Source: Acidimicrobiia bacterium (lineage in GTDB: Bacteria; Actinomycetota; Acidimicrobiia; Spongiisociales; ZC4RG35). From it: 64,000 nucleotides of DNA. Positions 5,288 to 33,658 of this stretch are shown in pieces (the stretch's first letter is position 1; each line of letters opens with the position of its first letter). The notes under the pieces were generated by a model, which ran no database searches, was not told the DNA's origin, and was given only the letters and a program-made list of their open reading frames with translations. The DNA is taken from positions 15,945 through 79,944 of the forward strand of contig WFOA01000010.1 in NCBI GenBank assembly GCA_015488325.1, read 5' to 3'. Position numbers and translations under genes: made by a program.

Positions 5288-6130
5288 TCAGAGTCGGCGG
5301 CCCCAGACCGCCAGGTCGAGGGAGGTGAGTTCCGACAGGTTACGGACCGACGCGTCGAGGCGGGCCGTCACCGACCCGGGAAGCGGCTGGTCCCGGGATT
5401 CCGCCCGCAGCCGTTCGGCCATCGGATCCCGGCGGAGCAGGAGGGGACGTACGAGCTTGCGGATCGCCCGGGGGGTGACCGGTTCGAGGCGCCGCAGCAG
5501 GCGGCTGTCGTACAGGCGCCTCATGAGGGGCGTGTAGTCGGGTTTGTCGGCGGTGACGTTCACGGCGACCCGGGGGTGGGGACTCGGCGGCAGATCCAGG
5601 AACGCCAGCACCTCGCTCCAGGCCGGATGCTCGCCGTCGACCAGATGTTCCATCTGGACGACCAGGAGCGCCTCGGTCCCGAACCGTTCGAGGAAGGGAG
5701 CCAGGGCCAGGTCGTAGAGGCTGCGGCGAACGTAGGGGTTGTCGGGTTCGGAGACGGCCTGGAGGAACGGTCGACGTTCCCTCCCATGATGCACTTCGTG
5801 CCGATAGTGGCTCCGCAGCCGGGTCTCCGGCTCCCGAAGCACACAGATGAGCCGCACCGACGGGCACATCTCGGCGATCCGAGCGGCGACCTCGGAGGCC
5901 ACCTGGGGGTCCGAGTACGCCACCGAAGCCTCCCCGGCGAGACCGTCGGTCGGGAACAGCGACCGGTAGCGCCGGTGGGCCCGGGAACCTGGCCCGTTGC
6001 CGGTGAGGAAGAACTCGGGTTCTTTCTCCCTGCACAGGATCGAACCCGACGCCTGCTGGAGCCACCGGAACAGGGCGGTGGTTCCCGATTTCATGGTGCC
6101 GACGATGATGAACTCGGGGTCGCGGCTCAT
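5288..6130 (-). CDS. Sulfotransferase family protein (PAPS-dependent)
   Basis: 5'-PSB-like P-loop FIIVGTMKSGTTALFRWL close to the N-terminus when starting at the ATG at 6130 (the track start at 6157 is TTG). About 280 aa, a typical size. Confidence 0.75.
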   Translation of the reverse strand: MSRDPEFIIVGTMKSGTTALFRWLQQASGSILCREKEPEFFLTGNGPGSRAHRRYRSLFPTDGLAGEASVAYSDPQVASEVAARIAEMCPSVRLICVLREPETRLRSHYRHEVHHGRERRPFLQAVSEPDNPYVRRSLYDLALAPFLERFGTEALLVVQMEHLVDGEHPAWSEVLAFLDLPPSPHPRVAVNVTADKPDYTPLMRRLYDSRLLRRLEPVTPRAIRKLVRPLLLRRDPMAERLRAESRDQPLPGSVTARLDASVRNLSELTSLDLAVWGRRL

Positions 6131-6203
6131 CTCAGGCTGACGGCTCCGAGGACCCAAACCGTAGACGGACCGCCTCCCCCGGAACTCCGGGCGTCGGGAA
6201 ATC

Positions 6204-6227
6204 CGGCCCCGTCGTTCGACGGGGCCG
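6204..6227. promoter_or_regulatory. 24-bp perfect palindrome CGGCCCCGTCG-TT-CGACGGGGCCG in the divergent region between the sulfotransferase and ABC-transporter genes
   Basis: Read directly from the sequence. It shares the CCCCGTCG core with the 24390 palindrome. Confidence 0.45.
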
Positions 6228-6435
6228 TACGGTCGGCGGCGAACTCGGTCGGCGCGGGGGCGGGGCGGAAGGGATGTCGAGACACCTCCGTCGCGGTCTC
6301 GGTACGAGCCTAGCGGTCGCCCGATGGTGAACGTCGACGGACCCGGGACCGGACGAGTCCGGCCTCTGCGAACACCGTCCCCCTTTCCAGCATGAAGCCC
6401 CCGGGTAGCATGGGCGGTCGGTCAGACCAGCGGGA

Positions 6436-8226
6436 GTGATCATCGCCAGTCCAGGGCTTCGCCGAAGCCTCTCCGTCCTCCTCGAACCGGGACGCCGCGC
6501 CCGGTGGGGGTGGCTGGTGGTGCTCGCCGCCGTCAACGCCGCCGTCGAAGCCCTCGGCGCCCTCCTCATCTTCTTCGCCGTCAACCGGGTCACCCAGAGT
6601 CCGTCGACGACCCCCCTCGACGCCTGGTTCCCGCCCGGTTCAGACCGGGCCACCATGATGGTCGTGGCTGCGGTGATCGGCGGCTTCTTCCTCGCCCGTG
6701 CCGTCTTCACCGTCGGCCGCACGTGGTTCGAGCACCAGGTGATCCAACACACCGCCGCCCGCACCGCCGACCGCCTGTTCCGCCGCTACCTGGCCACTCC
6801 CTACCGTGTCCATCTGCGTCGAAGCTCGCCCGAGCTGATCCGCAACGCCATCACGTCGGTCGACGAAGTGGCGATGCGGTTCCTCACCCCCCTGGTGAGT
6901 GTCAGCGGCGAGGCCGTCATCGTCGTCGTGATGGTGGCGGTCCTCGCCGTCACGGCACCGGTGGTCACCGTCGTCGCCGCAGGAGCGATCGGCGTCGTCG
7001 GTTTCGCCCTCCTCCGGTTCGTGCGGGGACGCCTCCGGCAGGTGGGACGGCTGTCCGAGCGTTCCCAGCAGCGGTCCTTCGCCGCCATCCAACACGGACT
7101 CGGGGACCTGCGGAACATCAAGGTCTACGGCCGGGAACGGTTCTTCGCCGCCATCTTTCAGACCGAACGTCTCGGGTTCGCCCGGGCCCGCTACGAGATG
7201 GCCACCCTGTCGGTGGTGCCCCGGGTGGGGATCGAGACCCTCGTGTTCCTGATGGTGGTGGGGTTCCTCGCCGTCGCCTCCGCCGACGCCGCCGCCGAAT
7301 CCCTGTCGGTCCTGGGGCTCTTCGCCTACGCGGCCCTGCGGATCATGCCGGGCGTCAACCGGATCATCCACGGCCTCAACCGGATCCGGTTCGCCACCGC
7401 GGCCGTCGACAACGTGGTCGCCGACCTGAGCGGACCCGAACCGTCGCTTCCTCCCCTTCGCAACCGGGAGGCACCCCTCGAATGGTCGGCCGTCGTCTTC
7501 GAAGACGTCTCCTTCCGCTACGACGACGACGGACCGGAGGTGCTCTCGGGGATCGACCTGACCCTCCGCAAGGGGTCGTCGACGGGGCTGGTCGGTCCTA
7601 CCGGTGCCGGGAAGTCGACCCTCCTCGACCTGATCCTCGGTCTGTTGGAGCCGACCGGCGGGACGATCACCCTCGATGGACGTCCCCTCACCGACGTCCT
7701 CGACCGGTGGCAGGCGATGATCGGTCTCGTCTCCCAGGACATCTTCCTCCTCGACGACACCATCCGCCGAAACGTCGCCTTCGGGATCCCCGACGACGAG
7801 ATCGACGACGACAAGGTATGGAGGGCCCTCCGCCTCGCCCAGCTCGCCGACTTCGTGGAGCAGACCGACCGGGGTCTCGACACCCCGGTGGGCGAACGCG
7901 GGGTGTCGCTGTCGGGGGGACAGCGTCAGCGGGTGGCGATCGCCCGGGCCCTCTACCACGACCCCGAGATCCTCGTCTTCGACGAGGCCACCTCTTCGCT
8001 CGACCCCGTCACCGAACGGGACCTCCTCGACGCCATCGACCAGCTCGGACGAGACCGGACCGTCGTCATGGTCGCCCACCGGCTCTCCACCGTCGAACGC
8101 TGCGACCGGATCGTCGTCGTCGACGGTGGCCGGATCGTCGCCGAAGGGGACTTCGGGGAGCTGACCCGGGACAGCGCCCTGTTCCGCCGCCTCTCCGCCC
8201 CTACGAGGCTGCCCGAACCGACCTGA
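6436..8226 (+). CDS. ABC transporter, fused permease/ATP-binding protein (MsbA/PglK-like exporter)
   Basis: N-terminal 6-TM domain, then Walker A GPTGAGKST, signature LSGGQRQRVAIARAL and Walker B ILVFDEATSSLD. GTG start. Confidence 0.85.
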   Translation: MIIASPGLRRSLSVLLEPGRRARWGWLVVLAAVNAAVEALGALLIFFAVNRVTQSPSTTPLDAWFPPGSDRATMMVVAAVIGGFFLARAVFTVGRTWFEHQVIQHTAARTADRLFRRYLATPYRVHLRRSSPELIRNAITSVDEVAMRFLTPLVSVSGEAVIVVVMVAVLAVTAPVVTVVAAGAIGVVGFALLRFVRGRLRQVGRLSERSQQRSFAAIQHGLGDLRNIKVYGRERFFAAIFQTERLGFARARYEMATLSVVPRVGIETLVFLMVVGFLAVASADAAAESLSVLGLFAYAALRIMPGVNRIIHGLNRIRFATAAVDNVVADLSGPEPSLPPLRNREAPLEWSAVVFEDVSFRYDDDGPEVLSGIDLTLRKGSSTGLVGPTGAGKSTLLDLILGLLEPTGGTITLDGRPLTDVLDRWQAMIGLVSQDIFLLDDTIRRNVAFGIPDDEIDDDKVWRALRLAQLADFVEQTDRGLDTPVGERGVSLSGGQRQRVAIARALYHDPEILVFDEATSSLDPVTERDLLDAIDQLGRDRTVVMVAHRLSTVERCDRIVVVDGGRIVAEGDFGELTRDSALFRRLSAPTRLPEPT

Positions 8227-8237: not shown

Positions 8238-9140
8238 TCAGGCCGACGGCCCCGGCAGCGGCGGCGGGAACCTGAGGTGGCGGAGGTCGCTCCCCGCCAC
8301 CGCCAACCGGAGGTAGGCACCGAGCCGTTCACGTCCGCCATGCCATCCGATCCCCCGGAGGATCTGGATGGCTCGGAGCGAAGCCGGAGAGAACCAGATG
8401 CGGTAGTAGGTGGCCCGGCCCGACATCTGGCGGAGGGAACGGGCACCCGAGTCGTAGACGGCGCTGGTGGCCACCCCCTGGGTGTGTACGCACACGGCAC
8501 CGGGGACGCTGACCCGTCGATAGCCGAGGGCGGCCAGGCGCCGGCTCAGATCGATGTCCTCTCCATACAGGAAGAAGGCGGGATTGAATCCGCCGACTTC
8601 CCGCAGCAGGTCGGTGGGTCCCAGGAGGCACGCACCCACCAGCCAGGCGACGTCGTGGGGCTCCTCCGACGCCGGATAGGTGACGTCCGCCAGGCCGACC
8701 AGCCTCCGAAGCCGCTGCCACTCCTCCGACCATCCGGGGAACCGGTAGCGGGCGCTGGGTGCCGGGGTGCCGTCTTCCCCGACGATGCGGGGACCGACCA
8801 GACCGATCGTCGGATCCGACGAGAGGGTGTCGATGAGCAGACGGATCGAGTCGGTGTCGATGACGGCGTCGTCGTTCATGATCAGCGCCCAGGTGCCCCG
8901 GGCTTCGACGAGGCCTCGGTTCACGGCCCTGCCGAAACCGACGTTGTCGTCGTTGACGAGCACCCTGCCCCGCCGGAGGACCCTGCGGGCTTCGGAGACG
9001 GTGTCGTCGGAGGAGGCGTTGTCGACGACCAGCAGCTCGGCGTCGAAGGGCTCGAGCGCGGCCTCCATCGCCTCCAGGTTGGCGGCGATGTCCCGACCCG
9101 AGTTGTAGGTTACGGTGATGAAGGTCAGCTCTGTGGCCAT
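8238..9140 (-). CDS. Glycosyltransferase family 2
   Basis: Real start MATELTFITVTYNSGRDIA... (ATG at 9140). DxD-type motifs VVDNASSDDT and MNDDAV. The upstream in-frame extension to 9539 is R/P-rich junk. Confidence 0.8.
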   Translation of the reverse strand: MATELTFITVTYNSGRDIAANLEAMEAALEPFDAELLVVDNASSDDTVSEARRVLRRGRVLVNDDNVGFGRAVNRGLVEARGTWALIMNDDAVIDTDSIRLLIDTLSSDPTIGLVGPRIVGEDGTPAPSARYRFPGWSEEWQRLRRLVGLADVTYPASEEPHDVAWLVGACLLGPTDLLREVGGFNPAFFLYGEDIDLSRRLAALGYRRVSVPGAVCVHTQGVATSAVYDSGARSLRQMSGRATYYRIWFSPASLRAIQILRGIGWHGGRERLGAYLRLAVAGSDLRHLRFPPPLPGPSA

Positions 9141-9216: not shown

Positions 9217-10404
9217 GCGGCGGTGAGTTCGACATCACGGCCGCGGGTGCTGTTCTTGGGGAACGTGTTCCCCGTCCCTGCCGACGACGGCACCAAGATC
9301 CGGATCCGGAATCTGGTCGAGGCGGTGGCGACGGTCGCCGACGTCGACGTGTTCACCCTGTACGGCCCCGACGATCCCCTCGGCACCGCGGCCGACCTCG
9401 GGGTGGCGCGCCTCGGCGGCGTCTCCCGCAACCGGGCGTGGAGACCTCGCTCCCCGCTCCGATGGCCGGTGTCGCCCCTGCCGCGACCGTGGGCCTCCCG
9501 GGACGTGTCGGCCGCCCGGGAGGCCCTGTCGGCCTTCACCCGAGGTTCCTACGACCTCGTCTGGTACTGCCGGGTCGAGACGTTCCTCACCTTTGGTCCG
9601 GTCCCGGCGTCCCGCCGCCTGCTCGACGTCGACGTCCTGGAGGAGGAGCGGATCGCCACCTCCGTCGAAGCGGGGAAGGGTTCACCGCTGCGGACCTTCG
9701 CCGCCTTCGTCGACCGGGCACGGTGGCGAAGGCTCGAGAGGCGGGTCGTCGACGCCGTGGACGTCGCCTTCGTCTGCAGCGACGCCGACCGGCGCCACCT
9801 GGGAGGCGACGGCGTGGTGGTCGTCCCCAACGGCTACGAGGAGACCCGGTCGCTGCCGGCCGTCACGCCGGAGCACCCAACCGTCGGGTTCGTCGGCTCC
9901 TTCGCCTACGGGCCGAACGTCGACGCCGCCCGGGTCCTCGTGGAAGAGGTGATGCCGCGGGTCCGGGCACGGGTGCCCCAGGCACGCCTCCTCCTCGTCG
10001 GCAAACACGGCGACGAGCTGTTCGGCGTCGACCGCCCCGACTGGGTGGAGGCCACCGGCTACGTCGACGAGGTGGAACCCTGGCTGGCCCACATCGACGT
10101 GATGGCGGTGCCGATCAGGTATGGGGGCGGCACCCGGATCAAGATCCTCGAAGCCCTCTGCCACCGGATCCCGTTGGCCGCATACCGGTACGCGGTGGCC
10201 GGGATCGACGTGGCCGACGGGGTCCATGCCCGCCTCGTCGAGGACGCCGAGGGACTCGCCGCGGCCGTGGTGGCGCTGCTGGAAGACGCCGACTCGGCGG
10301 CCCGGCTGGCGGAGGCCGGGCGACGACTCTTCGAGGAGCGCTACCGCTGGGCTGCCATCCGCACACAGGTCGCCGGCCTCGTCGCCGACCTCGTTCAGAG
10401 GTAG
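9217..10404 (+). CDS. Glycosyltransferase family 4 (GT-B fold)
   Basis: C-terminal GT4 motif region ...GYVDEVEPWLAHIDVMAVPIRYGGGTRIKILEAL. The start is uncertain (GTG at 9217 proposed; the track ATG at 9115 would overlap the divergent GT2 start). Confidence 0.7.
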   Translation, partial: AAVSSTSRPRVLFLGNVFPVPADDGTKIRIRNLVEAVATVADVDVFTLYGPDDPLGTAADLGVARLGGVSRNRAWRPRSPLRWPVSPLPRPWASRDVSAAREALSAFTRGSYDLVWYCRVETFLTFGPVPASRRLLDVDVLEEERIATSVEAGKGSPLRTFAAFVDRARWRRLERRVVDAVDVAFVCSDADRRHLGGDGVVVVPNGYEETRSLPAVTPEHPTVGFVGSFAYGPNVDAARVLVEEVMPRVRARVPQARLLLVGKHGDELFGVDRPDWVEATGYVDEVEPWLAHIDVMAVPIRYGGGTRIKILEALCHRIPLAAYRYAVAGIDVADGVHARLVEDAEGLAAAVVALLEDADSAARLAEAGRRLFEERYRWAAIRTQVAGLVADLVQR

Positions 10405-11324
10405 AGCACCCGGTACCGCACCGAACCGACGAGACGTCCCAGGCGCAGCCCCGCCCCTTTGATCCATTCCCGTCGGCGGCGGGAGGAGACGACGAGGGGG
10501 AGACGAGCGACGAGCGACACGTAGGCCCGGAGCGTCGACAGCACCCCCGGATGGGGCATGTACTCGGCGCCGTAGACCCGGCGGGCGAGAGCCTGCTCGA
10601 CGCCCCACCGTACCCGTTGCCGCCACAGGGACCAGGCGTCGTCCCGGATCCGGTACCAGATCTCGGCGTCGGGGACCGACACGTACGCGAGGCCTCCTCG
10701 CTGCAGCCGCCACGACAGGTCGAGTTCGGAGAGGTGGGACGGATAGTCCTCTCGGAACCCTCCCAGGGCCCTCCACAGGTCGGCCCGCATGGCGAAGTTG
10801 GCGCTGGAGGCGTGGGATGCGGCCGCGGGCGACCGTCCCCAGGGCTGTGTGTCACGGTCGGGATGGTCGGAGGGATGCATGGGACCCGCGCCCGCAGGCG
10901 CCGACGCCAGGGCCTCGACGAACGCAGAGATCCACCTGGTCGACACCCGGTCGTCGGCGTCGCAGAAACAGAGGATGTCTGCGTCGGTGGACTTGGCGCC
11001 GATGTTGCGGGCAGCCGGGGATCCGACCGGTTCGGGAACGGAGATCACCTGGAGGGCGGGGAGGCGCTCTCGGAAGCCCTCGGCGACGGCGCGGGTACCG
11101 TCGGTCGACCCGTCGTCGACCACCACCACCTCCCAGGGACCTTCGTAGTCTTGGGCTTCGAGGGCTTCGAGCTGCTCGGCGAGATGACGGGCCGCGTTCC
11201 GGGCCGGGATCACGACGGCGACCCTCGGGTTGGGACCCGGCGGGCGGCTCACCTCCGAGAGATCCGGCACATCCCAGGGGGCGAGGTCGTCGAGGCCCAT
11301 ACGGTGAGGATACCGAGGGTCCAT
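10395..11324 (-). CDS. Glycosyltransferase family 2 (paralog of 12876..13739)
   Basis: PRVAVVIPARNAARHLAEQLEALEAQ ... VVVVDDGSTDGT ... CDADD motifs. ATG at 11324 has GGGGA 5 nt upstream; an alternative ATG lies at 11300. The C-terminus RYRVLYL matches the paralog's RYRVLVL. Confidence 0.8.
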   Translation of the reverse strand: MDPRYPHRMGLDDLAPWDVPDLSEVSRPPGPNPRVAVVIPARNAARHLAEQLEALEAQDYEGPWEVVVVDDGSTDGTRAVAEGFRERLPALQVISVPEPVGSPAARNIGAKSTDADILCFCDADDRVSTRWISAFVEALASAPAGAGPMHPSDHPDRDTQPWGRSPAAASHASSANFAMRADLWRALGGFREDYPSHLSELDLSWRLQRGGLAYVSVPDAEIWYRIRDDAWSLWRQRVRWGVEQALARRVYGAEYMPHPGVLSTLRAYVSLVARLPLVVSSRRRREWIKGAGLRLGRLVGSVRYRVLYL

Positions 11325-11433
11325 GCGGGTCCCCGACCGCGGGCTAGCCTGCCCCGCAGTCGTGACCGAGGGTGGAGTGGCGGACAGGGCGGAGATCCCC
11401 AGAGGAGACGAGGAGGGGCTGAAAGCCGGCGCG

Positions 11434-12897
11434 ATGGCGGGCGGTCGCTGGTCGGCGACCTCCAGCATCGGCCGTCAACTCGTCACCACCCTCGCCACCG
11501 TCGTCCTGGCTCGGCTCCTCGCCCCCGCCGACTACGGGATCGCGGTGGCCGTCACCGTCATCCTCGGCGTCTTCGAGCTGATGTCACAGTTCGGAATCGG
11601 CCAGTCCCTGGTCCGTCACCGTCGACTCGACCCCTCGACCACGTCGACGACGTTCTGGGCCTCGCTGATCATCGCCGGGGTGGTCTCGACCAGCGTCGTG
11701 GTGTTCGCCGACCCGCTGGGGAGCCTCATCGGCCAGGAGGCTCTGGGGCCGTTCCTCCGGCTGGCGGCGGTCGGGTTGGCGGTCTCGATGGCGGCTTCGG
11801 TGCCTGCAGGTCTGCTCACCCGGCAGATGGAATGGTCGAAGCTGACGATGATCCAGCTCGCCGGGTCGATCGTCCAGTTCTCGGTGGCGGTGGGGTTGGC
11901 GGCGACGACGGCGCTCGGGGCGTGGGTCCTCATCATCGGACGGGTGGCCGGGTCGGCCTTCCAGTTCGTCGGCCTCTTCTGGGCGGCACGGTGGACCCCG
12001 ACCTGGGAGTTCTCCCCGGCGGTGCTCCGCCGGGACCTCTCCTTCAACCTGGGGTTCTGGAGCACCTACGTCACCTCGTATGTGGCGAAGAACCTGGACT
12101 ACTGGGTGGTGGGCCGGCTGTTGGGGGCTGCCGTGCTGGGCGTCTATTACATCGCCTACGTGCTGCCGGTGCTCGTCCGCCAGCGCATCACCCGGGTCCT
12201 GGAGGGTGTCTTGTATCCGGTCATGGCACGGGTCGCCGACGACCGCCGCCGTCTCGAAGCCGTGTACGTCGAAGCCCTCGGGTTCTCCACCTTCGTCACC
12301 CTCCCGGCGGTGCTGGGCCTGGTCGCCGTCGCCGACCTCGTCGTCCCCCTGTTCTTCGGTACCCAATGGTCCGGGGCGGTGGCACCGATGCGGATCCTGG
12401 CGCTGGCGACCGCCTTCGACGCCCTCCTCCCCGTCGGCACCGCCCTGTTCCTGGCCCTCGGCCTCCCCGGCCGCAACGCCGTCATCACCACCTCCCGGGT
12501 GGTGACGATGGTCGTCGTCTTGGCCGTGGTGGCCGGGTCCCGGGACCTCACCTCGATCGCGTGGGCGGTCGCCGCCGGGTCGGTGACGGCCGTCGTCGTG
12601 GCGTTCCGCCTCGTCGTCCGCCGGGCCGGCGTGTCGCCCCGCTCCTTCGCATCCGCGGTGCTCGCCCCGAGCGTCACCTCGGCGGCGATGCTCGGTGTCG
12701 TCGTCGCGACCCGCCAGTTCACCTTCGTCGGCGGCCTGGGCGACCTCCCCCAACTCGTCGTCGCCGTCGTCGTAGGGATCGTCGCCTACACGGTGCTCGG
12801 GATGGGACTGTTCCGCCGCCGATACCGGAAGTATTTCGCCGACCTCGCAACCCTGGTCGGCTTCGACCGGATCCGTCAGAGGACCAGCACCCGATAG
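11434..12897 (+). CDS. wzx: Wzx-type polysaccharide flippase (MOP/MATE-like polysaccharide biosynthesis protein)
   Basis: About 12 predicted TM segments; N-terminus MAGGRWSATSSIGRQLVTTLATVVLARLLAPADYGIAVAVTVILGVFELMSQFGIGQSLV typical of O-antigen/EPS flippases. The track start at 11323 would overlap the divergent GT2 start codon. Confidence 0.8.
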   Translation: MAGGRWSATSSIGRQLVTTLATVVLARLLAPADYGIAVAVTVILGVFELMSQFGIGQSLVRHRRLDPSTTSTTFWASLIIAGVVSTSVVVFADPLGSLIGQEALGPFLRLAAVGLAVSMAASVPAGLLTRQMEWSKLTMIQLAGSIVQFSVAVGLAATTALGAWVLIIGRVAGSAFQFVGLFWAARWTPTWEFSPAVLRRDLSFNLGFWSTYVTSYVAKNLDYWVVGRLLGAAVLGVYYIAYVLPVLVRQRITRVLEGVLYPVMARVADDRRRLEAVYVEALGFSTFVTLPAVLGLVAVADLVVPLFFGTQWSGAVAPMRILALATAFDALLPVGTALFLALGLPGRNAVITTSRVVTMVVVLAVVAGSRDLTSIAWAVAAGSVTAVVVAFRLVVRRAGVSPRSFASAVLAPSVTSAAMLGVVVATRQFTFVGGLGDLPQLVVAVVVGIVAYTVLGMGLFRRRYRKYFADLATLVGFDRIRQRTSTR

Positions 12898-18679: not shown

Positions 18680-18846
18680 GGTTCGGTGCGCTCCCGGCTC
18701 GGTGTCCTCCTCCGCCTCGACGAACCCGGCGTCTGCGGGCACCGAACCGTTCGCGTCGCTCCCCCGTCCGGCATGGGTTCCCCTCTCGAACGTCCACCGC
18801 GCATTATCGGACGCCGACGGGTTCAGGACCAAGTTCCCCACCTCGG

Positions 18847-19629: not shown

Positions 19630-19633
19630 GGCC

Positions 19634-24360: not shown

Positions 24361-24389
24361 CAGAACCTCCCAGCTCTCGCATCCCCACT

Positions 24390-24406
24390 TGACCCCGTCG
24401 GGGTCA
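24390..24406. promoter_or_regulatory. 17-bp perfect palindrome TGACCCCG-T-CGGGGTCA in the divergent promoter region between the capD-like operon and the epimerase operon
   Basis: Read directly from the sequence. It lies outside coding if the capD-like gene starts at the RBS-supported GTG at 24360. Confidence 0.5.
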
Positions 24407-24613
24407 GTCGGATACATCCTACCCGCGGACCGACATCATCAAATGGGCCGTCCGGCCCATTCCTGGGTCCCGGGACTCATTGTCGACCGCGACCGGAAAG
24501 TCCCACTTCCCGCCGCCCGATGCACCGTCTAGCCTGGCCCGGGGCGGCGCCGCATCGGCGCCAGTTCGCCACCACATCACGACTCGGTGCGAGCCAGGGA
24601 GGTTCGAAGAGCT

Positions 24614-26585: not shown

Positions 26586-27526
26586 CCGGCCCGAGCATCC
26601 GCCTCGCCCGACCCGACGATCTCCCCCAGATCCTCGACGTCCTGCGGGCCGCCCTGGGCGAGACGCCCCTGTTGCGACGCACCCCGGAGCTGTGGCGTTG
26701 GAAACACGTCGAGAACCCCTTCGGGCCGTCTCTGGTCCTCGTCGCCGAAGCCGACGGCCGGGTCGTCGGGGTACGGGCCTTCATGCGTTGGGAGTTGGAG
26801 ACGCCCGACGGTGACACCCTCCGGTGCGTCAGGGCGGTCGACACCGCCACCCATCCCGACTATCTGCGACGGGGGATCTTCCGGCGTCTGACCGAGTCGG
26901 CGATCGAATACGCCCGGGACGAAGGGGTGGATCTGGTCTTCAACACCCCCAACGCCAAGTCGGGGGCGGGATACCTGAAGATGGGGTGGCGGACCGTCGC
27001 CCGACTCGGGGTGATCGTCCGATGGCGGACGGGTCGGGTCGCACCCCTCGATTCCGATACCGTGCCCCGCCTCGACGACCATGTGGCGGCGGTCGACCCG
27101 CTGGATCCGCTGCCCCCGGCCAGACGGGGACACGGTCTCAGGACTCCCCGCCGCGACGCCTACCTCCACTGGAGGTTCTCACAGCATCCGACGGCACGCT
27201 ACGGAGCCGTCCGGTTCGGATCCGGGACCGCCGTGGTGCGACCCAACGTCCGTGCAGGACGCCGGGAGCTGGTGGTGTCGGACGTCCTCGGTGACGCCAC
27301 CGCGGGGCTGTTCCGGGAGGTGGCGAAGAGGAACCGCTCCCGCTACGTGGCCACCTGGTTCTCCCCGGCGGCACCGGAACGGCGCATAGCCCGACGTGCC
27401 CTGTACGCTCCGGTTCCGGGACTGCGGACCCTCACCCTCGTGGCCCGACCGCTACGGTCCCTCCCCGTGGACGTCTTCGATCTGGGGAACTGGGATCTGG
27501 CGGTGAGCGACCTGGAGTTGCTGTGA
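26582..27526 (+). CDS. GNAT-family acetyltransferase with C-terminal extension
   Basis: Start ATG at 26582 overlaps the upstream stop (ATGA). Acetyl-CoA binding region VVGVRAFMRWELE ... RRGIFRRLTESAIEYARDEGVDLVFNTPN. The in-frame N-terminal extension to 26474 is junk. Confidence 0.7.
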   Translation: MTGPSIRLARPDDLPQILDVLRAALGETPLLRRTPELWRWKHVENPFGPSLVLVAEADGRVVGVRAFMRWELETPDGDTLRCVRAVDTATHPDYLRRGIFRRLTESAIEYARDEGVDLVFNTPNAKSGAGYLKMGWRTVARLGVIVRWRTGRVAPLDSDTVPRLDDHVAAVDPLDPLPPARRGHGLRTPRRDAYLHWRFSQHPTARYGAVRFGSGTAVVRPNVRAGRRELVVSDVLGDATAGLFREVAKRNRSRYVATWFSPAAPERRIARRALYAPVPGLRTLTLVARPLRSLPVDVFDLGNWDLAVSDLELL

Positions 27527-28869
27527 GACAGCAGATCGTCCTCGGGATCGGCGCCGGGTTGACGGCACTGGTCGCGTTCGTCCTCGCCGCCGGCGCCGTC
27601 CCCCTCCACCTCGTGGTGCTGGCGGTGGCCGGCCTCTCCGTCACCTACCTGGTGGGTCGGGCGATGGCGACGGACTTCGACCGGTCCTGGCTCCCCGGTC
27701 TCCTGGTGGCCGGACTGGCCGCGAAGCTGGTCGGGGCCTGGGTCCGGTACTTCGTCCTCATCGAGGTGTACGGCGGTGTGGGTGACGCCCTCGGATACCA
27801 CAGCCGAGGCCTCCGCCTCGCCGAGATGTTCCGGGCGTTCACGGTCCCCACCTTCGAGGACGCCGGTTTCGGGTCGACCGGCACCCGGTTCGTCTCCTGG
27901 TTCACGGGTCTCGTCTACACGCCGTACCAGCCCGAGCCCCTCGGCGGTTTCTGGCTGTTCTCGCTGATCGCGTTCGCCGGCACGGTTCTCTTCTACGCGG
28001 CGGTGCGACGCAGCCTGCCACCGTCGACGTGGCGGCGGTTCCTCATCATGCTGATGTTCTGGCCGACGCTGCTGTACTGGCCGTCGTCGGTGGGCAAGGA
28101 AGCCCTGATCCTGGGCTTCGGAGGGGTGGTGACCTACGGGGCGGCGCGGCTGTTCGAGCGGTACCGCCTGAGCTGGCTGCTCGTCATCGGCGCGGCGATG
28201 GCCGTCATAGGCATCATCCGGGTCCACGTCGCCGGCCTGTTCGCCGGAGCGATCGTCGTCGGCATGCTCGTCTCCGCCGCACCTCGCGGTGCAGGCCCGA
28301 AGAGTCGCCGCCTCCTCCTCATGGCGGCCGGGTTCGCGGCGCTCATCCCCCTGGCCGCCCTGGTCTCGAGGGAGTTCGGCATCGACCCCAGCGGCCCCCT
28401 CGACCCCTCCGCCCTCGAGCCGGTCCTGTCCGAGGTGGCCCGCACCACCGGCCAGGGAGGCTCGGCGGTGCAGGGCGGGGTGATCCGCTCCATCGCCGAC
28501 GTCCCGGCCGGTGTCCTCAAGGTGTTGTTCCGTCCCCTCCCCTACGAGGCGTCCAACATCCAGATGCTGGCGGCCAGCGTCGAGGGCGTGGCGTTGCTCC
28601 TGTTGATCCTCTCCCGCACCCCGTGGATGATCGGGAACCTGCGTCGGCTGCGCCGCTTCCCGTATCTGATCTTCGCCGCCACGTTCTCGGCCGGTTTCGT
28701 GGTGGCCTGGAGCGCGATCCTCAACCTGGGGATCATCGCCCGCCAGCGGGCCCTCGTCATCCCCTTCGTCCTGACCCTCGTCGCCGGCCTCGGCTGGCCC
28801 CTGGCCGCCGGCGAGGAGCCGGCTTCCGCTGCCGAACCCGACCGGGACGCCGCCCTCAACCCCACTTGA
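27523..28869 (+). CDS. Polytopic membrane protein, candidate Wzy-type glycan polymerase
   Basis: 448 aa, at least 10 hydrophobic TM segments and one large extracytoplasmic loop. Placed in the operon after GT4 and GNAT and next to wzx-pathway genes; no specific motif recognised. Confidence 0.5.
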   Translation: MRQQIVLGIGAGLTALVAFVLAAGAVPLHLVVLAVAGLSVTYLVGRAMATDFDRSWLPGLLVAGLAAKLVGAWVRYFVLIEVYGGVGDALGYHSRGLRLAEMFRAFTVPTFEDAGFGSTGTRFVSWFTGLVYTPYQPEPLGGFWLFSLIAFAGTVLFYAAVRRSLPPSTWRRFLIMLMFWPTLLYWPSSVGKEALILGFGGVVTYGAARLFERYRLSWLLVIGAAMAVIGIIRVHVAGLFAGAIVVGMLVSAAPRGAGPKSRRLLLMAAGFAALIPLAALVSREFGIDPSGPLDPSALEPVLSEVARTTGQGGSAVQGGVIRSIADVPAGVLKVLFRPLPYEASNIQMLAASVEGVALLLLILSRTPWMIGNLRRLRRFPYLIFAATFSAGFVVAWSAILNLGIIARQRALVIPFVLTLVAGLGWPLAAGEEPASAAEPDRDAALNPT

Positions 28870-29794
28870 GCGCGGCCCCCACGGCGCCGACCACCGCCAG
28901 CACCCCGGTGACCGCCGCCGCGCCCACCCCGGCCCACCACCAGGCGGCGACGACCGCGCCACATAGGAGCGCCTGCGCCCCGGCGGCCACGAACACGACC
29001 GTCGGCACGCTCCACCCCCGGTCGGCCAGCCGGTCGTAGAGATGGGACCGGTCCCCTTGGAACAGGGGCATCCCCGCCCTCCGCCGTCGCAGCACCGTCG
29101 AGACGAGGTCGACGAGGAACACGCCGAGCAACGAGCCGCCGGCGACCATCCCGACCACGTCTTCGCCTCCCAGCCGGACACCGGAGGCCACGAGCATCAG
29201 GCCGACCAGGTAGCTGCCGTTGTCCCCGAGGAACACCCGCGCCGGATGCCAGTTGAAGACACCGAACCCGACCAAGGCGGCACCGAGGGCGACTTCGGCA
29301 CCGAGATCCGCTCCCGACGTCGACCCGACCAGCCCCATCGCCACCAGCGTCACCAGGGCCACCGACGCGACCAACCCGTCGAGGCCGTCGAAGAGGTTCA
29401 CGGCGTTGATCCCCACCACCACGCCGGCGGCGACGAGGGCACCGCCGACGGGTCCGACCCCGAGAGCCCAGGCCACGAGCACCCCGGCGACGGCTTCGAC
29501 GGCGAGCCTGAGCACCGGGGGCAGGCCTCTGCGGTCGTCGACCAGCCCCAACGCGACCACCAGCCCTGCCGCGACCATCAGCCTCGGGGAGGGACGTCCG
29601 GTGAGTATCGACGAGACGACGAGGGCGCCGTACAGCCCCACCCCTCCGAGGGGCACCGCCGGGACCGTGTGGACTTTCAGGGCCTCCCCGGGTCGGTCGA
29701 CGATCCCCAGTCGGGGGCCGAGCGCCGGTGCGATCGCCGACCACCCGGCGGAGACGACTGCGGCGGCGAGCCCTCCGGCGATCAGGCCGACCAC
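28856..29794 (-). CDS. Polyprenyl-phosphate N-acetylhexosamine-1-phosphate transferase (WecA/MraY family, GT4 phosphoglycosyl transferase)
   Basis: Conserved INAVNLFDGLDGL and VFLGDNGSYLVG motifs. Proposed GTG start at 29794 has GGAGGT 7 nt upstream; the long Arg-rich extension to 30619 is junk overlapping the next gene. Confidence 0.8.
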   Translation of the reverse strand: MVGLIAGGLAAAVVSAGWSAIAPALGPRLGIVDRPGEALKVHTVPAVPLGGVGLYGALVVSSILTGRPSPRLMVAAGLVVALGLVDDRRGLPPVLRLAVEAVAGVLVAWALGVGPVGGALVAAGVVVGINAVNLFDGLDGLVASVALVTLVAMGLVGSTSGADLGAEVALGAALVGFGVFNWHPARVFLGDNGSYLVGLMLVASGVRLGGEDVVGMVAGGSLLGVFLVDLVSTVLRRRRAGMPLFQGDRSHLYDRLADRGWSVPTVVFVAAGAQALLCGAVVAAWWWAGVGAAAVTGVLAVVGAVGAALKWG

Positions 29795-31554
29795 ACCAGC
29801 ACCTCCGAGGTCTCGCCGCGGTGGACTTCGATCGTCCCCACCGGTTCGAACCCCATCTTCCGGTAGGCGGCGATCGCCGCCGAGTTGTCGGCGCCCACGA
29901 CCACCTTCACCTTCCCCACGCGGCTCATCGCGGTGAGGAGCTCCCGTCCCAGAACGGTGCCGATCCCTCGACCGCGCCGATCCGCCACCACCGCCATCGA
30001 CACCAGTTCGGCGTCGACGCCGACGTCGCCGCCTTCGTAACGGAAGGTCTCCCAGGCCCGCCGCAGCATCGTCGGGCGCAGCAACCGAGGTGCGGCCGCC
30101 ACGACCGCCCGGATCCCGAAGCGACGGACGAAGGAACGGTAGAAGGCGCCGATGTCGGCGACGCCGGCGACGAACCCGACCGGCCCGCACTCGTCCTCGG
30201 CGACGAGCACGACGGCGTCTTCGTGTTCCACGAGCGCACGGTAGAGGAGTGTCATGAACCGGCGTCCCAGACGGGGCAGGAAACCGGTGGAGATCGCTTG
30301 CGCGTGCAGGACGGCCAGGAAACGGGTGTCCCCTTCGTCGGCCCGCCGGACCCGGACCTCGCCGGAAGGTCCGTCGCCGAGGGCGGCCGCCAGCCGGTCC
30401 AGGCCTTTGGTGAGGGCGAGCTCCCGATAGGTGGAGAGGACGATCTCGACGACCCTGTCCTCGTCGAAGAGCCGTCTGGCCCGTTCGCGCCCGGCCCGGC
30501 CCATCCGAGAGGCCAGCTCCGGGTCGTCCCCGATGGTCCGGATCGCCCGGGCCAGGGACCGGGCGTCGGAGACGGGGACGAGGAGGCCGTTCTCGCCGTC
30601 GGCGACGACCTCCCGGCATCCCCGGATGTCGGTGGCGACGATGGGCAGGCCCATGGCGGCAGCCTCCATCGCCGCCCGGGGGAAGCCTTCACGGTGCGAC
30701 GGGAGCACGAACACGTCCATCGTCGGGTAGAGGGCATCGACGTCGGTGCGCATCCCCAGGAACCGGACGCCGTTCGCCTTCGCCCGTTCGATCATCGCGT
30801 CGCCGAGGTCGTCCGCCTTTTCGGGGTCCCGGGGCCCGATGCAGACCACCACGTACCGGTCGTCGAGGAGTCGGGCGGCCTCGAAGAGCTCCGGGTAGCC
30901 CTTCTCCGCCACCATCCGCCCCACCATGCCCACCACCACCGCGTCCGACGGGATGCCGAGCTCGGCACGCATCCGATCCCGATGGGACCGGTCGTACCGG
31001 GCGGGATCGAACCGGGCGAGGTCGACACCGTTGCCGAGATGCCGTGTCCGAGCCCGGGGTGCGAGACGCAGCCTGTGGGCCAGTTCGAGATCCTCCGCGC
31101 TCTGATAGAGCTCGGCGTCGGAGAACCGGGAGGCGACGAACTCCAGGGCGTAGACGACCAGGCGTTTCAGCGGTGGATCGTCGGGGGCCGCGTAGAAGCC
31201 GTGCACCGTGTTGACGACGACGGGCACGCCGGCCACACGGCCGAGGATCCGACCGTAGACGCCGGGTTTGGGGTTGTGGGTGTGCAGCACGTCCGGTCGG
31301 AGCCGCCTCAGCACCCTCCAGAGCTGGGCGGCTGCCCGCAGGTCGGCGCCGAGGCTCATCCCACGTGTCGACGCCGACAGTGCCACATGTTCGATGCCTG
31401 CCGCCTCCAGCTCGGCCACCCAGGGGCCGGGAGAGGAGATCCCCACCGACCGGATGTCCCTCTGGAGGGGTGCGAGGAGCTGGGGGAACACCAGGTAGCG
31501 GAGGGACAGGTCCACCGTCGTCAGGTGGGCGATCACCGGGCGCCGATCAGCCAT
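29782..31554 (-). CDS. Bifunctional glycosyltransferase family 4 / GNAT acetyltransferase fusion
   Basis: N-terminal about 380 aa GT4 (EGFPRAAMEAAAMGLPIVATDIRGCREVV). C-terminal about 200 aa GNAT-like (FLAVLHAQAIS ... GRGIGTVLGRELLTAMSRVGKVKVVVGADNSAAIAAYRKMGF). Confidence 0.8.
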   Translation of the reverse strand: MADRRPVIAHLTTVDLSLRYLVFPQLLAPLQRDIRSVGISSPGPWVAELEAAGIEHVALSASTRGMSLGADLRAAAQLWRVLRRLRPDVLHTHNPKPGVYGRILGRVAGVPVVVNTVHGFYAAPDDPPLKRLVVYALEFVASRFSDAELYQSAEDLELAHRLRLAPRARTRHLGNGVDLARFDPARYDRSHRDRMRAELGIPSDAVVVGMVGRMVAEKGYPELFEAARLLDDRYVVVCIGPRDPEKADDLGDAMIERAKANGVRFLGMRTDVDALYPTMDVFVLPSHREGFPRAAMEAAAMGLPIVATDIRGCREVVADGENGLLVPVSDARSLARAIRTIGDDPELASRMGRAGRERARRLFDEDRVVEIVLSTYRELALTKGLDRLAAALGDGPSGEVRVRRADEGDTRFLAVLHAQAISTGFLPRLGRRFMTLLYRALVEHEDAVVLVAEDECGPVGFVAGVADIGAFYRSFVRRFGIRAVVAAAPRLLRPTMLRRAWETFRYEGGDVGVDAELVSMAVVADRRGRGIGTVLGRELLTAMSRVGKVKVVVGADNSAAIAAYRKMGFEPVGTIEVHRGETSEVLVWSA

Positions 31555-33658
31555 CGATCGTGCTCCTCAGGACCTGCTCGTACCGGTCGATGCTCGCACC
31601 CATCGTGTACCTGCGGGCCAGCTCCCGGGCGGCGGCACCCATCCGGCGGCGACGCTCGGGATCCGCGGCGAGGTTCTTCAGGGCGGCGGCGGCACCTTCG
31701 ACGTCCCCGGGCCGGACCAGGATCCCCGTCGTACCGTCGGTCACCACTTCGGGGGTGCCTCCCACCCGGGTCGCCACCACCGGACGTCCCGCCGCCGCGG
31801 CCTCCAGCACGACGCCGGGGAGCCCTTCGGTGCGGGAGGTGGACAACAGCACGTCCGCCCATCCGAACAGCTCTTCCATCTCCGCCGCCGAACCGAGGAC
31901 CTCGATCCGGGGACCCGCCGCCGCCTCGACTTCGGTGCGCAACGGGCCGTCACCGGCGATCTTCGCCCACACGTCGGCGTCGGCCGCGGCGAGGTTGATC
32001 GCCTGCACCGCCGTCAGCGGGTCCTTCTCCGTGGACAGGGCGCCGGCCACCAGCACCCGCAGCTCGGGGTGCGGGAGGGGCGGGTCCAGCTCGAACCAGT
32101 GGTCGGGCACGCCGGTGGGCGCGACCGTGACCCGGTCGGGGGCCACACCCATCGAGTCGATGAGCTGGCTGCGGGTGGCCTCCGACACGGCGGTGATCCG
32201 GTCGCAACGTCCGAGGAGGTACCGCTGGATCCGAGCGTGCCACGGGCCCCGCACCCAGTACCGGGGTTCACCGATCGACGAGTAGACGACGCGGGGACGC
32301 CCGGGCATGAACCTGGTGGCGGCGACGACGGTCCGCAGGGTGGCTCCTCCGTTGGCCAGGACGACGTCGGGCCGGCGCCGCCGGAGGAGCCTGCGCAACA
32401 GCCGTGGCAGCGCCACGTCGGAGACGTCGGCTCCCCCGACGGCGTCGTCCACCTGGACCCGGGGGTCGGATCCGCCGGCTCTGAGGGCCACCAGGCTCGC
32501 CTTCCATCCCCGTGCCCGCAGGCCCTCGACGAGACGTTCACCGAACACTTCGGCGCCGCGTCGCCGATCGGAGCTGACCAGCACCATCACCGACCCGAAC
32601 CGGTCCCCCTTCGAGGCGACGACCCGCCGACGCCAGCGCGGGTAGGCGCGGGGGGCCCGCAGCGCCAGCACCGCCCGGTCGAGCCGTCGGTCGGCGTGGA
32701 GGGTGACCGCCAGGTTGAGGAGATGGGGCCTCTTCCCGTCGAACCGCACCAGGTCGGTGCGGGGGAGCAACTCCCGGGCGACCCGGAGGGGGAGACCGCC
32801 GGTGGAGGTCTCCGCCAACACCTCCCCGGGTACGGCGGCTCCCAGGGCGGAGGCGACGCTCCAGGCCAGATGCCCGAACCCGGCCAGGCCGTGGTCGTGG
32901 GCGAAGCGGACCGCCGTCTCCCAGTCGAGGCCGTGCCGGGCGACTTCGACGAGGTCACGGAACAGCACCAGCCGGAACCGATGATCCAAGAGGGCGTGGG
33001 TACACAGGAACGCCGCCACGACCTCGTCGGGCAGCAGCCACCCGAGGTGGGTCTGGTCCGGCTCGGGGGGACGTGCCCGCTCCCACGCCTGCTCGGTCGC
33101 TCCGGCGGCGCGGCCGCGGAGTTGACGGTACGAGAAGAGGTCCCAGTGCAGGTCGACGTTGAAGACCACCCCGGAGGGGTCGCGGAACGGGATGTCCCGT
33201 TTGTCGGCTCTCGGTCGCTTCGGTGGAATCCCCAGACATTCGGGGTCGGAGGCGACGATCTCAAGGGTGCGACCGAGTTCGGCGGACGGGACGACCAGAT
33301 CGAGGTCGGTGAAGATCCGCTGGCCCGGGGTCGGGTAGAGCCGGTCCGCCAGCGCGGGCCCCTTCACCACCGCCGCTCGGATGCCGGCGGCGGCGAGGCG
33401 TTCCATGAGGCGACGGAGGCTGCGGCGCATCACGATGCCCAGGGCGACCGCCCGGGTCTGCACGGTGGACAGCTCGTGGCGATCGACGACGTCGCCGGGG
33501 GTGAGCAGGCCGACCAGACCGTGGCTACAGGCGAGTTCGAAGACGGCGCCGTCGACCGACCCGGCCGGGCGTTCCCATCCTGCCGCCACCGCCGCCAGCA
33601 CCCGTTCGGCGGGATCGGCCGCGAACAGCCATCCTTCGTTCGGTTCGGTGCCCCTCAC
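31547..33658 (-). CDS. Fusion protein: N-terminal uncharacterised nucleotidyltransferase-like domain (NTP_transf_5-like) + C-terminal glycosyltransferase family 4
   Basis: N-terminal region with FTDLDLVVP-type motif. C-terminal GT4 motif EGLPGVVLEAAAAGRPVVATRVGGTPEVVTDGTTG. First gene of a 3-gene minus-strand operon; stops overlap downstream starts. Confidence 0.75.
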   Translation of the reverse strand: MRGTEPNEGWLFAADPAERVLAAVAAGWERPAGSVDGAVFELACSHGLVGLLTPGDVVDRHELSTVQTRAVALGIVMRRSLRRLMERLAAAGIRAAVVKGPALADRLYPTPGQRIFTDLDLVVPSAELGRTLEIVASDPECLGIPPKRPRADKRDIPFRDPSGVVFNVDLHWDLFSYRQLRGRAAGATEQAWERARPPEPDQTHLGWLLPDEVVAAFLCTHALLDHRFRLVLFRDLVEVARHGLDWETAVRFAHDHGLAGFGHLAWSVASALGAAVPGEVLAETSTGGLPLRVARELLPRTDLVRFDGKRPHLLNLAVTLHADRRLDRAVLALRAPRAYPRWRRRVVASKGDRFGSVMVLVSSDRRRGAEVFGERLVEGLRARGWKASLVALRAGGSDPRVQVDDAVGGADVSDVALPRLLRRLLRRRRPDVVLANGGATLRTVVAATRFMPGRPRVVYSSIGEPRYWVRGPWHARIQRYLLGRCDRITAVSEATRSQLIDSMGVAPDRVTVAPTGVPDHWFELDPPLPHPELRVLVAGALSTEKDPLTAVQAINLAAADADVWAKIAGDGPLRTEVEAAAGPRIEVLGSAAEMEELFGWADVLLSTSRTEGLPGVVLEAAAAGRPVVATRVGGTPEVVTDGTTGILVRPGDVEGAAAALKNLAADPERRRRMGAAARELARRYTMGASIDRYEQVLRSTIDG

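Follow-up and report, generated by a model that had tools for sequence, protein, structure and literature searches.

Which pathway builds and exports the polysaccharide encoded by a large glycan locus of an uncultured, high-GC actinobacterial lineage? The locus lies in a 64,000-nucleotide stretch of contig WFOA01000010.1 (Acidimicrobiia bacterium, GenBank assembly GCA_015488325.1), to whose whole length all positions below refer and which we call the window. A preliminary description made from the letters alone had placed a surface-glycan assembly locus at 6130-33658, with export of the Wzx/Wzy type and a fused ATP-binding cassette (ABC) exporter serving a second lipid-linked product.

Here we show that this is a genuine, well conserved and lineage-restricted cell-envelope glycan locus of what is probably a monoderm bacterium. 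A Wzx flippase is present, the supposed Wzy is a membrane glycosyltransferase (GT) of the GT-C_A fold, the supposed Wzc has lost its kinase motifs and the ABC exporter is an accessory gene. We lean, tentatively, towards reading the whole as a modular super-locus for a cell-envelope polysaccharide, which would be made by a lipid-linked pathway of the Gram-positive style with GT-C steps outside the cytoplasm.

Extent and modular structure of the locus

Genes were called by third-position GC and cross-checked against public calls on identical contigs (NCBI GCA_015484725.1 and several ENA 'REYS20-1' scaffolds); the whole window has about 70% GC throughout and contains no compositional island. The sequence belongs to a metagenome-assembled genome. 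Pfam and NCBIfam searches of the window proteins matched nearly all the glycan genes that had been listed, so the identification as a surface-glycan assembly locus stands. So does the tight operon coupling: 11 of the 15 same-strand junctions overlap, six of them by the 4-nt ATGA/GTGA arrangement.

The cluster spans about 34 kb inside the window and continues for at least 5 kb beyond the window start (at least 11 kb in two relatives). The right-hand border at 33658 is sound: an alpha/beta hydrolase and acyl-CoA dehydrogenases come next, and after them housekeeping functions (Suf, fumarase, two-component system, sigma factor, glutamate synthase). The left-hand border has to be moved: the minus-strand sulfotransferase has its start codon at position 6130, so that the first gene listed was itself excluded, and glycan genes run through window 1-5248 and past the window start. 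In the former segment a flavoprotein, a GT-C-like membrane protein and a beta-propeller protein carrying three CWB2 domains are encoded; past the window start the genes are those for another MOP flippase, for a methyltransferase, for another CE4 enzyme and for GT4 enzymes, with further GT2 genes farther out in two related loci (L013, L014). An OPX/Wza gene is absent from the locus. This absence, the high GC, the presence of a CWB2 wall-binding protein and the relatives of the ABC exporter and of the flavoprotein (given below) all indirectly suggest an Actinomycetota-like monoderm.

Comparison with neighbouring genomes, by a presence/absence matrix and locus listings, brings out how variable the locus is. 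A core is conserved in three lineages and consists of GT2c-Wzx-GT2b, the flavoprotein followed by the membrane protein GT-C1, the second flippase, the methyltransferase, CE4 and GT4 genes. A large module is kept in two lineages: rmlC-SDR1-rmlA-DRL, GT4b, CE4, the gene for a 931-aa polysaccharide co-polymerase (PCP)-like protein, CapD, SDR2-GT4c-GNAT-GT-C2 and WecA-GT4/GNAT-NTP5/GT4. The whole in-window module, including the four-gene rml/SDR1/DRL unit, is conserved in the related locus L095. The third component is a variable cassette of GT4a and GT2a together with the ABC exporter, the CWB2 protein and one or two sulfotransferases. In L014 the core adjoins dnaG/rpoD, and the rml/CapD/PCP module, the sulfotransferase, the CWB2 gene and the ABC exporter are missing.

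This modularity bears on an alternative in which the region is a mosaic of adjacent, independent glycan loci, each with a product of its own: the core, the rml/CapD/PCP/WecA/GT-C2 module and the ABC/sulfotransferase/CWB2 cassette. The solitary core of L014 speaks for it, as do the two MOP flippases, the two CE4 enzymes and an ABC exporter that moves between clusters. We nevertheless regard a mosaic as somewhat unlikely: in two lineages all the modules lie side by side, in one shared order, along more than 40 kb, the sequence inspected holds a single initiating transferase, and composite two-chain wall polymers made from bipartite loci are a known precedent (PMC9574508).

GT-C_A transferases and no recognisable Wzy

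A further revision concerns the polytopic membrane proteins. The genes needed here are:

27523..28869, plus strand: GT-C2, a membrane glycosyltransferase of the GT-C_A fold (by fold search with a predicted structure), candidate polymerase or ligase
1..1413, minus strand: GT-C1, a membrane glycosyltransferase of the GT-C_A fold, 471 of its 489 aa in the window and the last 18 aa outside
1403..2881, minus strand: flavoprotein resembling UDP-galactopyranose mutase (UGM), NCBIfam PRK07208 family (NF005548, 722 bits against a cut-off of 389)

GT-C2, 448 aa long, is the product of the gene that had been called Wzy-like. It has no match in Pfam or NCBIfam, and its structural model, with a predicted local distance difference test score (pLDDT) of 91, matches GT-C_A enzymes only (ALG12, ArnT, Pmt4 and AglB). 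An exhaustive HMMER search gathered a family of about 2500 cluster representatives, of which 42 spread members were compared with known domains: none matches Wzy_C, five match PMT_2 and one DUF2142. The family profile matches no PDB sequence, so that the fold search alone is informative, and BLASTP finds no similarity between GT-C2 and the Wzy_C-type protein of a Nitriliruptor locus described below. Ten residues are invariant in the family (R75, D88, W186, K192, R233, H235, E354, N401, R407 and R409). Because the candidate has the GT-C_A fold and 0 of 42 family members match Wzy_C, the window contains no recognisable canonical Wzy (Wzy_C/GT-C_B, WaaL-like fold). On the strength of its model, GT-C2 is the second GT-C_A transferase of the locus and not a Wzy, and of 'Wzx/Wzy-type' export only the first element survives.

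The GT-C2 family has neither a Pfam nor an NCBIfam model and lacks a sequence-detectable solved relative. Some of its members are fused into much longer proteins (719-1216 aa).

GT-C1, cut by the window start, had been put forward as a possible periplasmic transferase. Its full 489-aa protein occurs in identical form on L007, and the check for features of an oligosaccharyltransferase (OTase) found none apart from the GT-C fold of the PglB/AglB/STT3 enzymes: a regular-expression search detects no WWDxG motif in GT-C1 or GT-C2, and GT-C1 matches neither the PMT/PMT_2 nor the Wzy_C/PglL families. GT-C1 has five relatives in what is a rare family, and one of the five matches Pfam GT87; for GT-C1 itself the gathering score of that family (PF09594, PimE-type polyprenol-phosphate-mannose mannosyltransferases) is not reached.

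The flavoprotein stop and the GT-C1 start overlap by 11 nt, an arrangement conserved in L013 and L014. The equivalog NF005548 carries the name 'hypothetical protein' only, and the best genome match is a metagenome-assembled genome (MAG) of the Egibacteraceae. Among solved structures the flavoprotein comes closest to UDP-galactopyranose mutases of the eukaryotic type (4dsg, E 1.5e-22; 3ute, E 1.9e-21), a similarity that suggests a furanose sugar in the product.

The flavoprotein family is widespread, with at least 599 loci at 50-61% identity in Planctomycetota, Acidobacteriota, Verrucomicrobiota, Chloroflexota and others. Of 53 loci, 6 have it directly 5' of a polytopic membrane protein (490-650 aa, 6-10 transmembrane (TM) segments), which means that the pair does not occur everywhere, and tblastn with GT-C1 found no match in 80 flavoprotein loci of other phyla (L015-L094).

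These results also weigh on the idea of protein glycosylation, in which GT-C1, GT-C2 or both would glycosylate the CWB2 beta-propeller protein with lipid-carried sugars or with a lipid-carried oligosaccharide. Apart from the shared fold, the motif and family searches just given tell against it, the nearest structural neighbours are lipid-phosphate-mannose transferases acting on glycolipids, and the flavoprotein-GT-C1 pair is kept in L014, which has no CWB2 gene; this last point argues against a dedicated glycosylation of the CWB2 protein by GT-C1. We consider protein glycosylation very improbable.

A co-polymerase-like protein with a degenerate kinase domain

If GT-C2 acts as a polymerase, a partner for it may be encoded in the same module:

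19634..22429, minus strand: PCP-2-like protein of 931 aa, with a coiled-coil ectodomain (about 255 aa) between TM1 and TM2, then a degenerate P-loop domain resembling bacterial tyrosine kinases (BY-kinases), a Pro/Ala linker and a C-terminal domain

The earlier label 'Wzc-like' holds for the topology of this protein and fails for its kinase. TM segments at residues 16-34 and 292-310 stand on either side of the coiled-coil ectodomain, which is the PCP-2 topology, and residues 382-560 match BceF/Wzc/CapB (E 1.5e-8). In the BceF alignment the K/S of Walker A has become V/H, GK[ST] occurs nowhere in the 931 aa and Walker B lacks its second Asp. A Tyr cluster is missing as well, residues 540-600 and the last 40 residues being devoid of Tyr. 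The losses of kinase motifs are common to all four family members (4/4); a canonical BY-kinase in the same alignment (P0298) keeps GEGKT and ends RYRYYEAY. From these motifs we read its kinase-like part as a pseudo-kinase domain and the whole as a probable Wzz-like protein for chain length or scaffolding. By BLASTP it has no similarity to a 736-aa protein of the Nitriliruptor locus.

Its C-terminal domain (about 260 aa, residues ~660-931; window 19637-20452, minus strand) is conserved and has no match in Pfam. It is faintly similar to the extreme C-terminus of the BREX PglX/BrxX methyltransferases (NCBIfam E 3e-10, a weak match), and against the PDB its BrxX match is non-significant (9ewz/8zek, E 1.4). 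A PglX-like end is odd on a polysaccharide co-polymerase-like protein.

The ABC exporter as an accessory gene

The second export route of the preliminary description rested on the following gene:

6436..8226, plus strand: fused ABCB-type exporter with transmembrane and nucleotide-binding domains (ABC_membrane, PF00664; ABC_tran, PF00005), accessory; public calls start at 6517

The fused exporter is there as described, a half-transporter in a single polypeptide and not an ABC-2 permease with a separate nucleotide-binding domain, with Walker A and LSGGQ intact. It stays below the cut-off of every equivalog against which it scores: MsbA (311 vs 602), HepA (283 vs 725) and PglK (NF050066; 266 vs 1000). 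Its nearest named relatives are in Acidimicrobiia MAGs and Nitriliruptor alkaliphilus, and the genes around its relatives differ:

L096 (97%): same population, same locus
L009 (GCA_054037635.1; 78%): a different cluster with GT2, sugar nucleotidyltransferase, SDR, C-methyltransferases, sulfotransferase and GT4
L010 (55%): unrelated genes
L011 (51%): nonribosomal peptide synthetase (NRPS) cluster
L012 (Nitriliruptor; 46-47%): inside a Wzx/Wzy_C/GT2/GT4/CE4 locus

Co-conservation with glycan genes is thus seen at 97%, 78% and 46-47%, and fails in the relatives at 55% and 51%. It fails again in the syntenic sister lineage L013/L097, where both flanking genes are present, the exporter is absent and a second sulfotransferase sits in the slot. 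Because of this absence and of the variable context among its relatives, the exporter, although glycan-associated in close relatives, is an accessory cassette and not a fixed second export route. Given the copies at 78% and 46-47% inside glycan clusters, the data equally do not make it a transporter unrelated to glycans. Two lipid-linked products are still plausible, but chiefly on account of the second MOP flippase module outside the window, not of the ABC exporter.

The original proposal amounts to a classical Wzx/Wzy/Wzc pathway for a capsule or exopolysaccharide (EPS), next to which a second product, a lipid-linked oligosaccharide, would leave through the ABC exporter. Of its parts, the Wzx flippase, the WecA-like initiator and the PCP-like protein do occur; as for the second product, the exporter scores best against the MsbA, HepA and PglK models, JGI labels many of its relatives PglK, and two relatives lie in glycan loci. 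Against this, no Wzy is found in the window, its candidate being a GT-C_A protein, the kinase is degenerate, the PglK score is far from its cut-off, the sister lineage does without the exporter and some relatives belong to NRPS or unrelated contexts. We therefore judge this combination to be quite unlikely.

Two of the relatives deserve mention in their own right. Positions 2136-4585 of L009 carry two genes of the Methyltransf_13/14 type (sugar C-methyltransferase-like) and a different sulfotransferase, which hints at a methylated, sulfated deoxysugar glycan. In Nitriliruptor alkaliphilus (L012, GCA_000969705.1, 1-21791) the ABCB exporter stands among Wzx, Wzy_C-type, GT2/GT4, CE4 and methyltransferase genes, beside an APH-like kinase gene; this is a cultured actinobacterium, and its locus is a possible experimental model.

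A sulfotransferase beside a CWB2 protein

The cassette that contains the exporter also includes two neighbouring genes:

5288..6130, minus strand: cytoplasmic sulfotransferase of the 3'-phosphoadenosine-5'-phosphosulfate (PAPS) type (Sulfotransfer_3, E 1.3e-7)
2987..5200, minus strand: secreted beta-propeller protein with three C-terminal CWB2 domains (CW_binding_2, PF04122, E 3.8e-53 in 3 stretches), PD40/Kelch repeats and a signal-peptide-like N-terminus

The sulfotransferase had been named correctly, and its PAPS-binding motifs are intact (KSGTT for the 5'-phosphosulfate-binding and REPETRLRS for the 3'-phosphate-binding motif). It has no signal peptide or TM segment, and sulfation would therefore be cytoplasmic. 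A metagenome scan with this protein returned 3 loci, 2 of them already known. The CWB2 protein adjoins the sulfotransferase in L013/L097 too, at 80% identity.

CWB2 triplets bind the anionic polymer PSII in Clostridioides difficile, where PSII is encoded beside the cwp genes (PMC4973711), and CWB2 domains are already known in Actinobacteria (PMC5817068). By analogy, we infer that the neighbouring CWB2 protein may be anchored by the product of the locus, which would be an anionic and possibly sulfated wall polymer. A bolder version, to which we give little credence, is that actinobacterial CWB2 proteins would have as their natural ligand a sulfated secondary wall polymer, polymerised by a GT-C_A family member under a pseudo-kinase PCP with a new C-terminal domain; sulfate would then play the part that phosphate has in PSII.

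Sugar-nucleotide supply

Two sets of genes would provide activated sugars in addition to the UGM-like flavoprotein:

13755..14906, minus strand: DRL-type NAD(P) oxidoreductase that also matches SAF weakly, candidate reductase of a sugar nucleotide (DRL_cat, E 6.6e-34; NAD_binding_3; PDB 3upl/3upy, E 6e-34)
14903..15808, minus strand: RmlA, glucose-1-phosphate thymidylyltransferase (TIGR01207, 483.6 bits vs 360.65)
15805..16842, minus strand: SDR1, Cj1427-like extended SDR (PDB 6vo6, E 3e-34)
16839..17411, minus strand: RmlC-type dTDP-4-dehydrorhamnose 3,5-epimerase (TIGR01221, 214.4 bits vs 155.75)
22420..24417, minus strand: membrane-anchored UDP-GlcNAc 4,6-dehydratase of the CapD/WbpM/PseB type (Polysacc_synt_2, E 1.3e-105; four N-terminal TM segments)
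24614..25498, plus strand: SDR2, SDR of the UDP-sugar 4-epimerase or 4-reductase type (Epimerase, E 3e-52; intact YNITK)

The preliminary picture of this part needs little change. The SAF-domain oxidoreductase, whose gene is translationally coupled to rmlA, the CapD/WbpM dehydratase and the epimerase (SDR2) are all as listed, and rmlA, an SDR and rmlC are accompanied by neither rmlB (best scores in the locus 42 and 112 bits, cut-off 365) nor rmlD (39 and 78 bits, cut-off 224). If these two genes are located outside the locus, the product would contain rhamnose or some other 6-deoxy-L-hexose; if not, the conserved quartet would make another kind of dTDP-L-sugar. The CapD-type dehydratase stays under the cut-offs of the PseB (184 bits) and FnlA equivalogs, and the best PDB matches of SDR2 are MoeE5 and UDP-GlcNAc 4-epimerases.

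SDR1 is peculiar. The structure that it matches, 6VO6, is one that we take, also from its depositor label, to be Campylobacter jejuni Cj1427; where 6vo6 has YGIDK, SDR1 has YAQAN and an 89%-identical orthologue YAKAN, so that the catalytic Lys is gone. Despite the lost YxxxK lysine, the SDR1 gene has been conserved, and it stands in translational coupling between rmlA and rmlC.

Chain assembly, flippase and modifying enzymes

The remaining glycan genes of the window are as follows:

8238..9140, minus strand: GT2a glycosyltransferase (Glycos_transf_2, E 2.9e-19; 300-aa call from public assemblies)
9223..10404, plus strand: GT4a glycosyltransferase (Glyco_trans_1_4, E 1.5e-23)
10395..11300, minus strand: GT2b glycosyltransferase, flanking Wzx in the conserved core (Glycos_transf_2, E 3.7e-25; all three lineages)
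11323..12897, plus strand: Wzx-type MOP flippase (Polysacc_synt_3, PF13440, E 1.5e-66; ~12-13 TM segments)
12876..13739, minus strand: GT2c glycosyltransferase, flanking Wzx in the conserved core (Glycos_transf_2, E 1.8e-23)
17501..18850, minus strand: GT4b glycosyltransferase (Glycos_transf_1, E 1.4e-33)
18847..19629, minus strand: CE4 polysaccharide deacetylase (Polysacc_deac_1, E 1.6e-26)
25479..26585, plus strand: GT4c glycosyltransferase (Glycos_transf_1, E 8.9e-39)
26582..27526, plus strand: GNAT acetyltransferase (Acetyltransf_9, E 6.7e-18)
28856..29794, minus strand: WecA/MraY-family polyprenyl-phosphate N-acetylhexosamine-1-phosphate transferase, initiating (Glycos_transf_4, PF00953, E 3.2e-24; ~9 TM segments)
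29782..31554, minus strand: GT4-GNAT fusion (Glycos_transf_1, E 2.2e-37, residues 192-358; Acetyltransf_7/1, 458-571)
31547..33658, minus strand: NTP_transf_5-GT4 fusion (NTP_transf_5, E 1.6e-24, residues 61-271; GT4, 368-679)

Here the flippase, the WecA-like initiating transferase (73 bits for TIGR02380, under its cut-off), the CE4 deacetylase and the GNAT enzyme agree with what had been listed. So do the three GT2 genes; in place of four GT4 genes we find three stand-alone GT4 and two GT4 fusions. These last are the two fusion enzymes that had been announced, and both have orthologues in L095 (590 aa for GT4-GNAT, 703 aa for NTP_transf_5-GT4).

Other features of the window

Outside the locus, Suf Fe-S genes occur in two groups (window 41059-44730; 49874-52247 and 56928-58340), the first, at 42-44 kb, with SufC-like and SufS genes and the second, at 50-58 kb, with a SufC-like gene and two SufBD paralogues; genes for UDG, fumarase, a sigma factor and a two-component system are interspersed. 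Two opposite-strand open reading frames, 47701-48405 (plus) and 47712-48356 (minus), overlap almost completely, both with high third-position GC, so that the coding strand is ambiguous. A putative glycoside hydrolase (DUF4015/GHL10) with a CarboxypepD_reg domain is encoded at 52974-54500 (minus strand), 19 kb from the locus among housekeeping genes.

Discussion

The pathway that we tentatively favour would run as follows. Three precursors would be made in the cytoplasm: a dTDP-L-sugar via RmlA, RmlC, the Cj1427-like SDR and the DRL-type reductase; a UDP-2-acetamido-2,6-dideoxyhexose via the CapD-type dehydratase and SDR2; and probably a furanose sugar via the UGM-like flavoprotein. The WecA-family enzyme would start the chain on polyprenyl phosphate, the GT2 and GT4 enzymes, including both fusions, would extend it, and the GNATs and the PAPS-dependent sulfotransferase would decorate it on the cytoplasmic side (the acceptor being putative). 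MOP (Wzx-type) flippases would carry the lipid-linked units across the membrane. Outside, the two GT-C_A transferases may polymerise the product, or join chains or side chains, from lipid-linked donors, GT-C2 being paired with the 931-aa Wzz/PCP-like pseudo-kinase as its chain-length partner; CE4 enzymes would then de-N-acetylate the product. The accessory ABC exporter may flip an extra lipid-linked, possibly sulfated, intermediate, and the anionic polymer would be the likely wall ligand of the adjacent three-CWB2 beta-propeller protein. Of this scheme, the genes and their families, the folds, the degenerate motifs, the synteny and the division into core and accessory parts are observed, and the substrates, the sequence of reactions, what the GT-C proteins do, the sulfation of the glycan and the CWB2 binding are proposed.

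Several results weigh against such a super-locus and keep our preference for it tentative. The fused ABCB exporter is of another type than the ABC-2 exporters of the cell-wall polysaccharides that are rich in rhamnose (Rha-CWPS). L014 has the core without the rml/CapD/PCP module, so the modules may make separate products. The model of GT-C1 is of moderate quality (pLDDT 62), and its first external loop has no invariant acidic residue. None of the loci listed contains an LCP ligase, which leaves wall attachment unexplained. Finally, no GtrB/GacI-type polyprenyl-phosphate-sugar synthase was identified, and the idea that GT2b or GT2c might be one found no support: they show neither a GtrB match nor a C-terminal TM pair, their matches to DPMS are weak (E 5e-4 and 2e-7), and their best PDB matches are generic GT-A enzymes (TarS-like structures (5tz8), chondroitin synthase and PglI).

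Among known systems, the dual-chain logic of Rha-CWPS, that is multicomponent transmembrane glycosylation, appears to be the best fit. In Lactococcus lactis a Wzx flippase, the GT-C polymerase WpsI with the two-TM Wzz-like WpsH, and the GT-C transferase WpsJ act together with an ABC exporter, with rml genes and with initiation of the TagO/WecA type (PMC9574508), and across lactococci and streptococci the corresponding parts are RgpCD (ABC), WpsG/GacK (Wzx), WpsI/WpsJ/GacL (GT-C) and WpsH (Wzz-like) (PMC9574508). The locus shares with them a modular bipartite organisation, TagO/WecA-type initiation, rml genes, a Wzx flippase, an ABC exporter, a two-TM Wzz-like partner and GT-C-fold enzymes for a putative extracytoplasmic polymerisation or transfer instead of Wzy; of the GT-C-fold transferases that characterise multicomponent transmembrane glycosylation it has two. 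It differs in that its ABC exporter is fused and dispensable across lineages, unlike the ABC-2 type RgpCD, that no GacI/WpsA-type undecaprenyl-phosphate-sugar synthase or GacJ partner was identified and rmlB and rmlD are missing from the locus, that the PCP-like protein has a degenerate kinase and a novel C-terminal domain, that a sulfotransferase is present and no LCP protein is seen, and that it belongs to another phylum (Actinomycetota-like, 70% GC).

The AP/PSII locus of C. difficile (PMC4973711) offers a second parallel, with a three-CWB2 protein directly beside a large polysaccharide locus that has a MviN/MOP-type flippase and a product predicted to be anionic; the charge would come from phosphodiester there and from (putative) sulfate here, and phylum and GT set differ. 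With the classical Wzx/Wzy/Wzc pathways (group 1/4 capsules, Gram-positive CpsC/D) the locus has in common a polyprenyl-phosphate initiator, Wzx and a PCP-2-like topology with a cytoplasmic P-loop domain, but not Wzy (GT-C_B/Wzy_C), the Walker A lysine, the Tyr cluster or OPX.

Pseudomonas aeruginosa WbpM and WbpL are a CapD-type dehydratase and a WecA-family initiator for an O-antigen initiated with UDP-QuiNAc/FucNAc. The ~665-aa membrane-anchored Polysacc_synt_2 dehydratase, the nearby SDR and the WecA-family initiator of our locus resemble this logic and would fit a 2-acetamido-2,6-dideoxyhexose as initiating sugar, although the PseB and FnlA equivalogs score below cut-off here. A further resemblance, presuming that 6VO6 is Cj1427, is to the capsular heptose pathway of C. 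jejuni, in that a Cj1427-subfamily SDR stands next to an RmlC-type epimerase, with a candidate reductase encoded separately; here the nucleotide would be dTDP (RmlA) and not GDP, SDR1 lacks the YxxxK lysine, and the reductase candidate is DRL-type, not an SDR. That pathway modifies heptose with the GDP-heptose C4 dehydrogenase Cj1427, an RmlC-like C3/C5 epimerase and a C4 reductase (PMC10680097).

Sulfation has been predicted, without chemical proof, for the wps-1 EPS cluster of Actinoplanes missouriensis, which has two sulfotransferases (PMC13390465). It is likewise an actinobacterial cluster with sulfotransferase, methyltransferase, Wzx and Wzz-like genes, but it has a predicted 10-TM Wzy and is without the GT-C pair, the ABC exporter and the CWB2 protein.

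The locus is thus a variant of known Gram-positive lipid-linked polysaccharide pathways, and the present value of the analysis is mainly an annotation that corrects the Wzy and Wzc labels and will not surprise specialists. The GT-C2 family is a sizeable unannotated family of membrane proteins, likely to be mislabelled as Wzy by automated readers, and it would gain an assigned function if the model is true. In that case GT-C-based extracytoplasmic assembly, which has been worked out mainly in lactococci, streptococci and mycobacteria, would extend to an uncultured high-GC lineage, and a sulfated wall polymer would be suggested as the ligand for actinobacterial CWB2 proteins.

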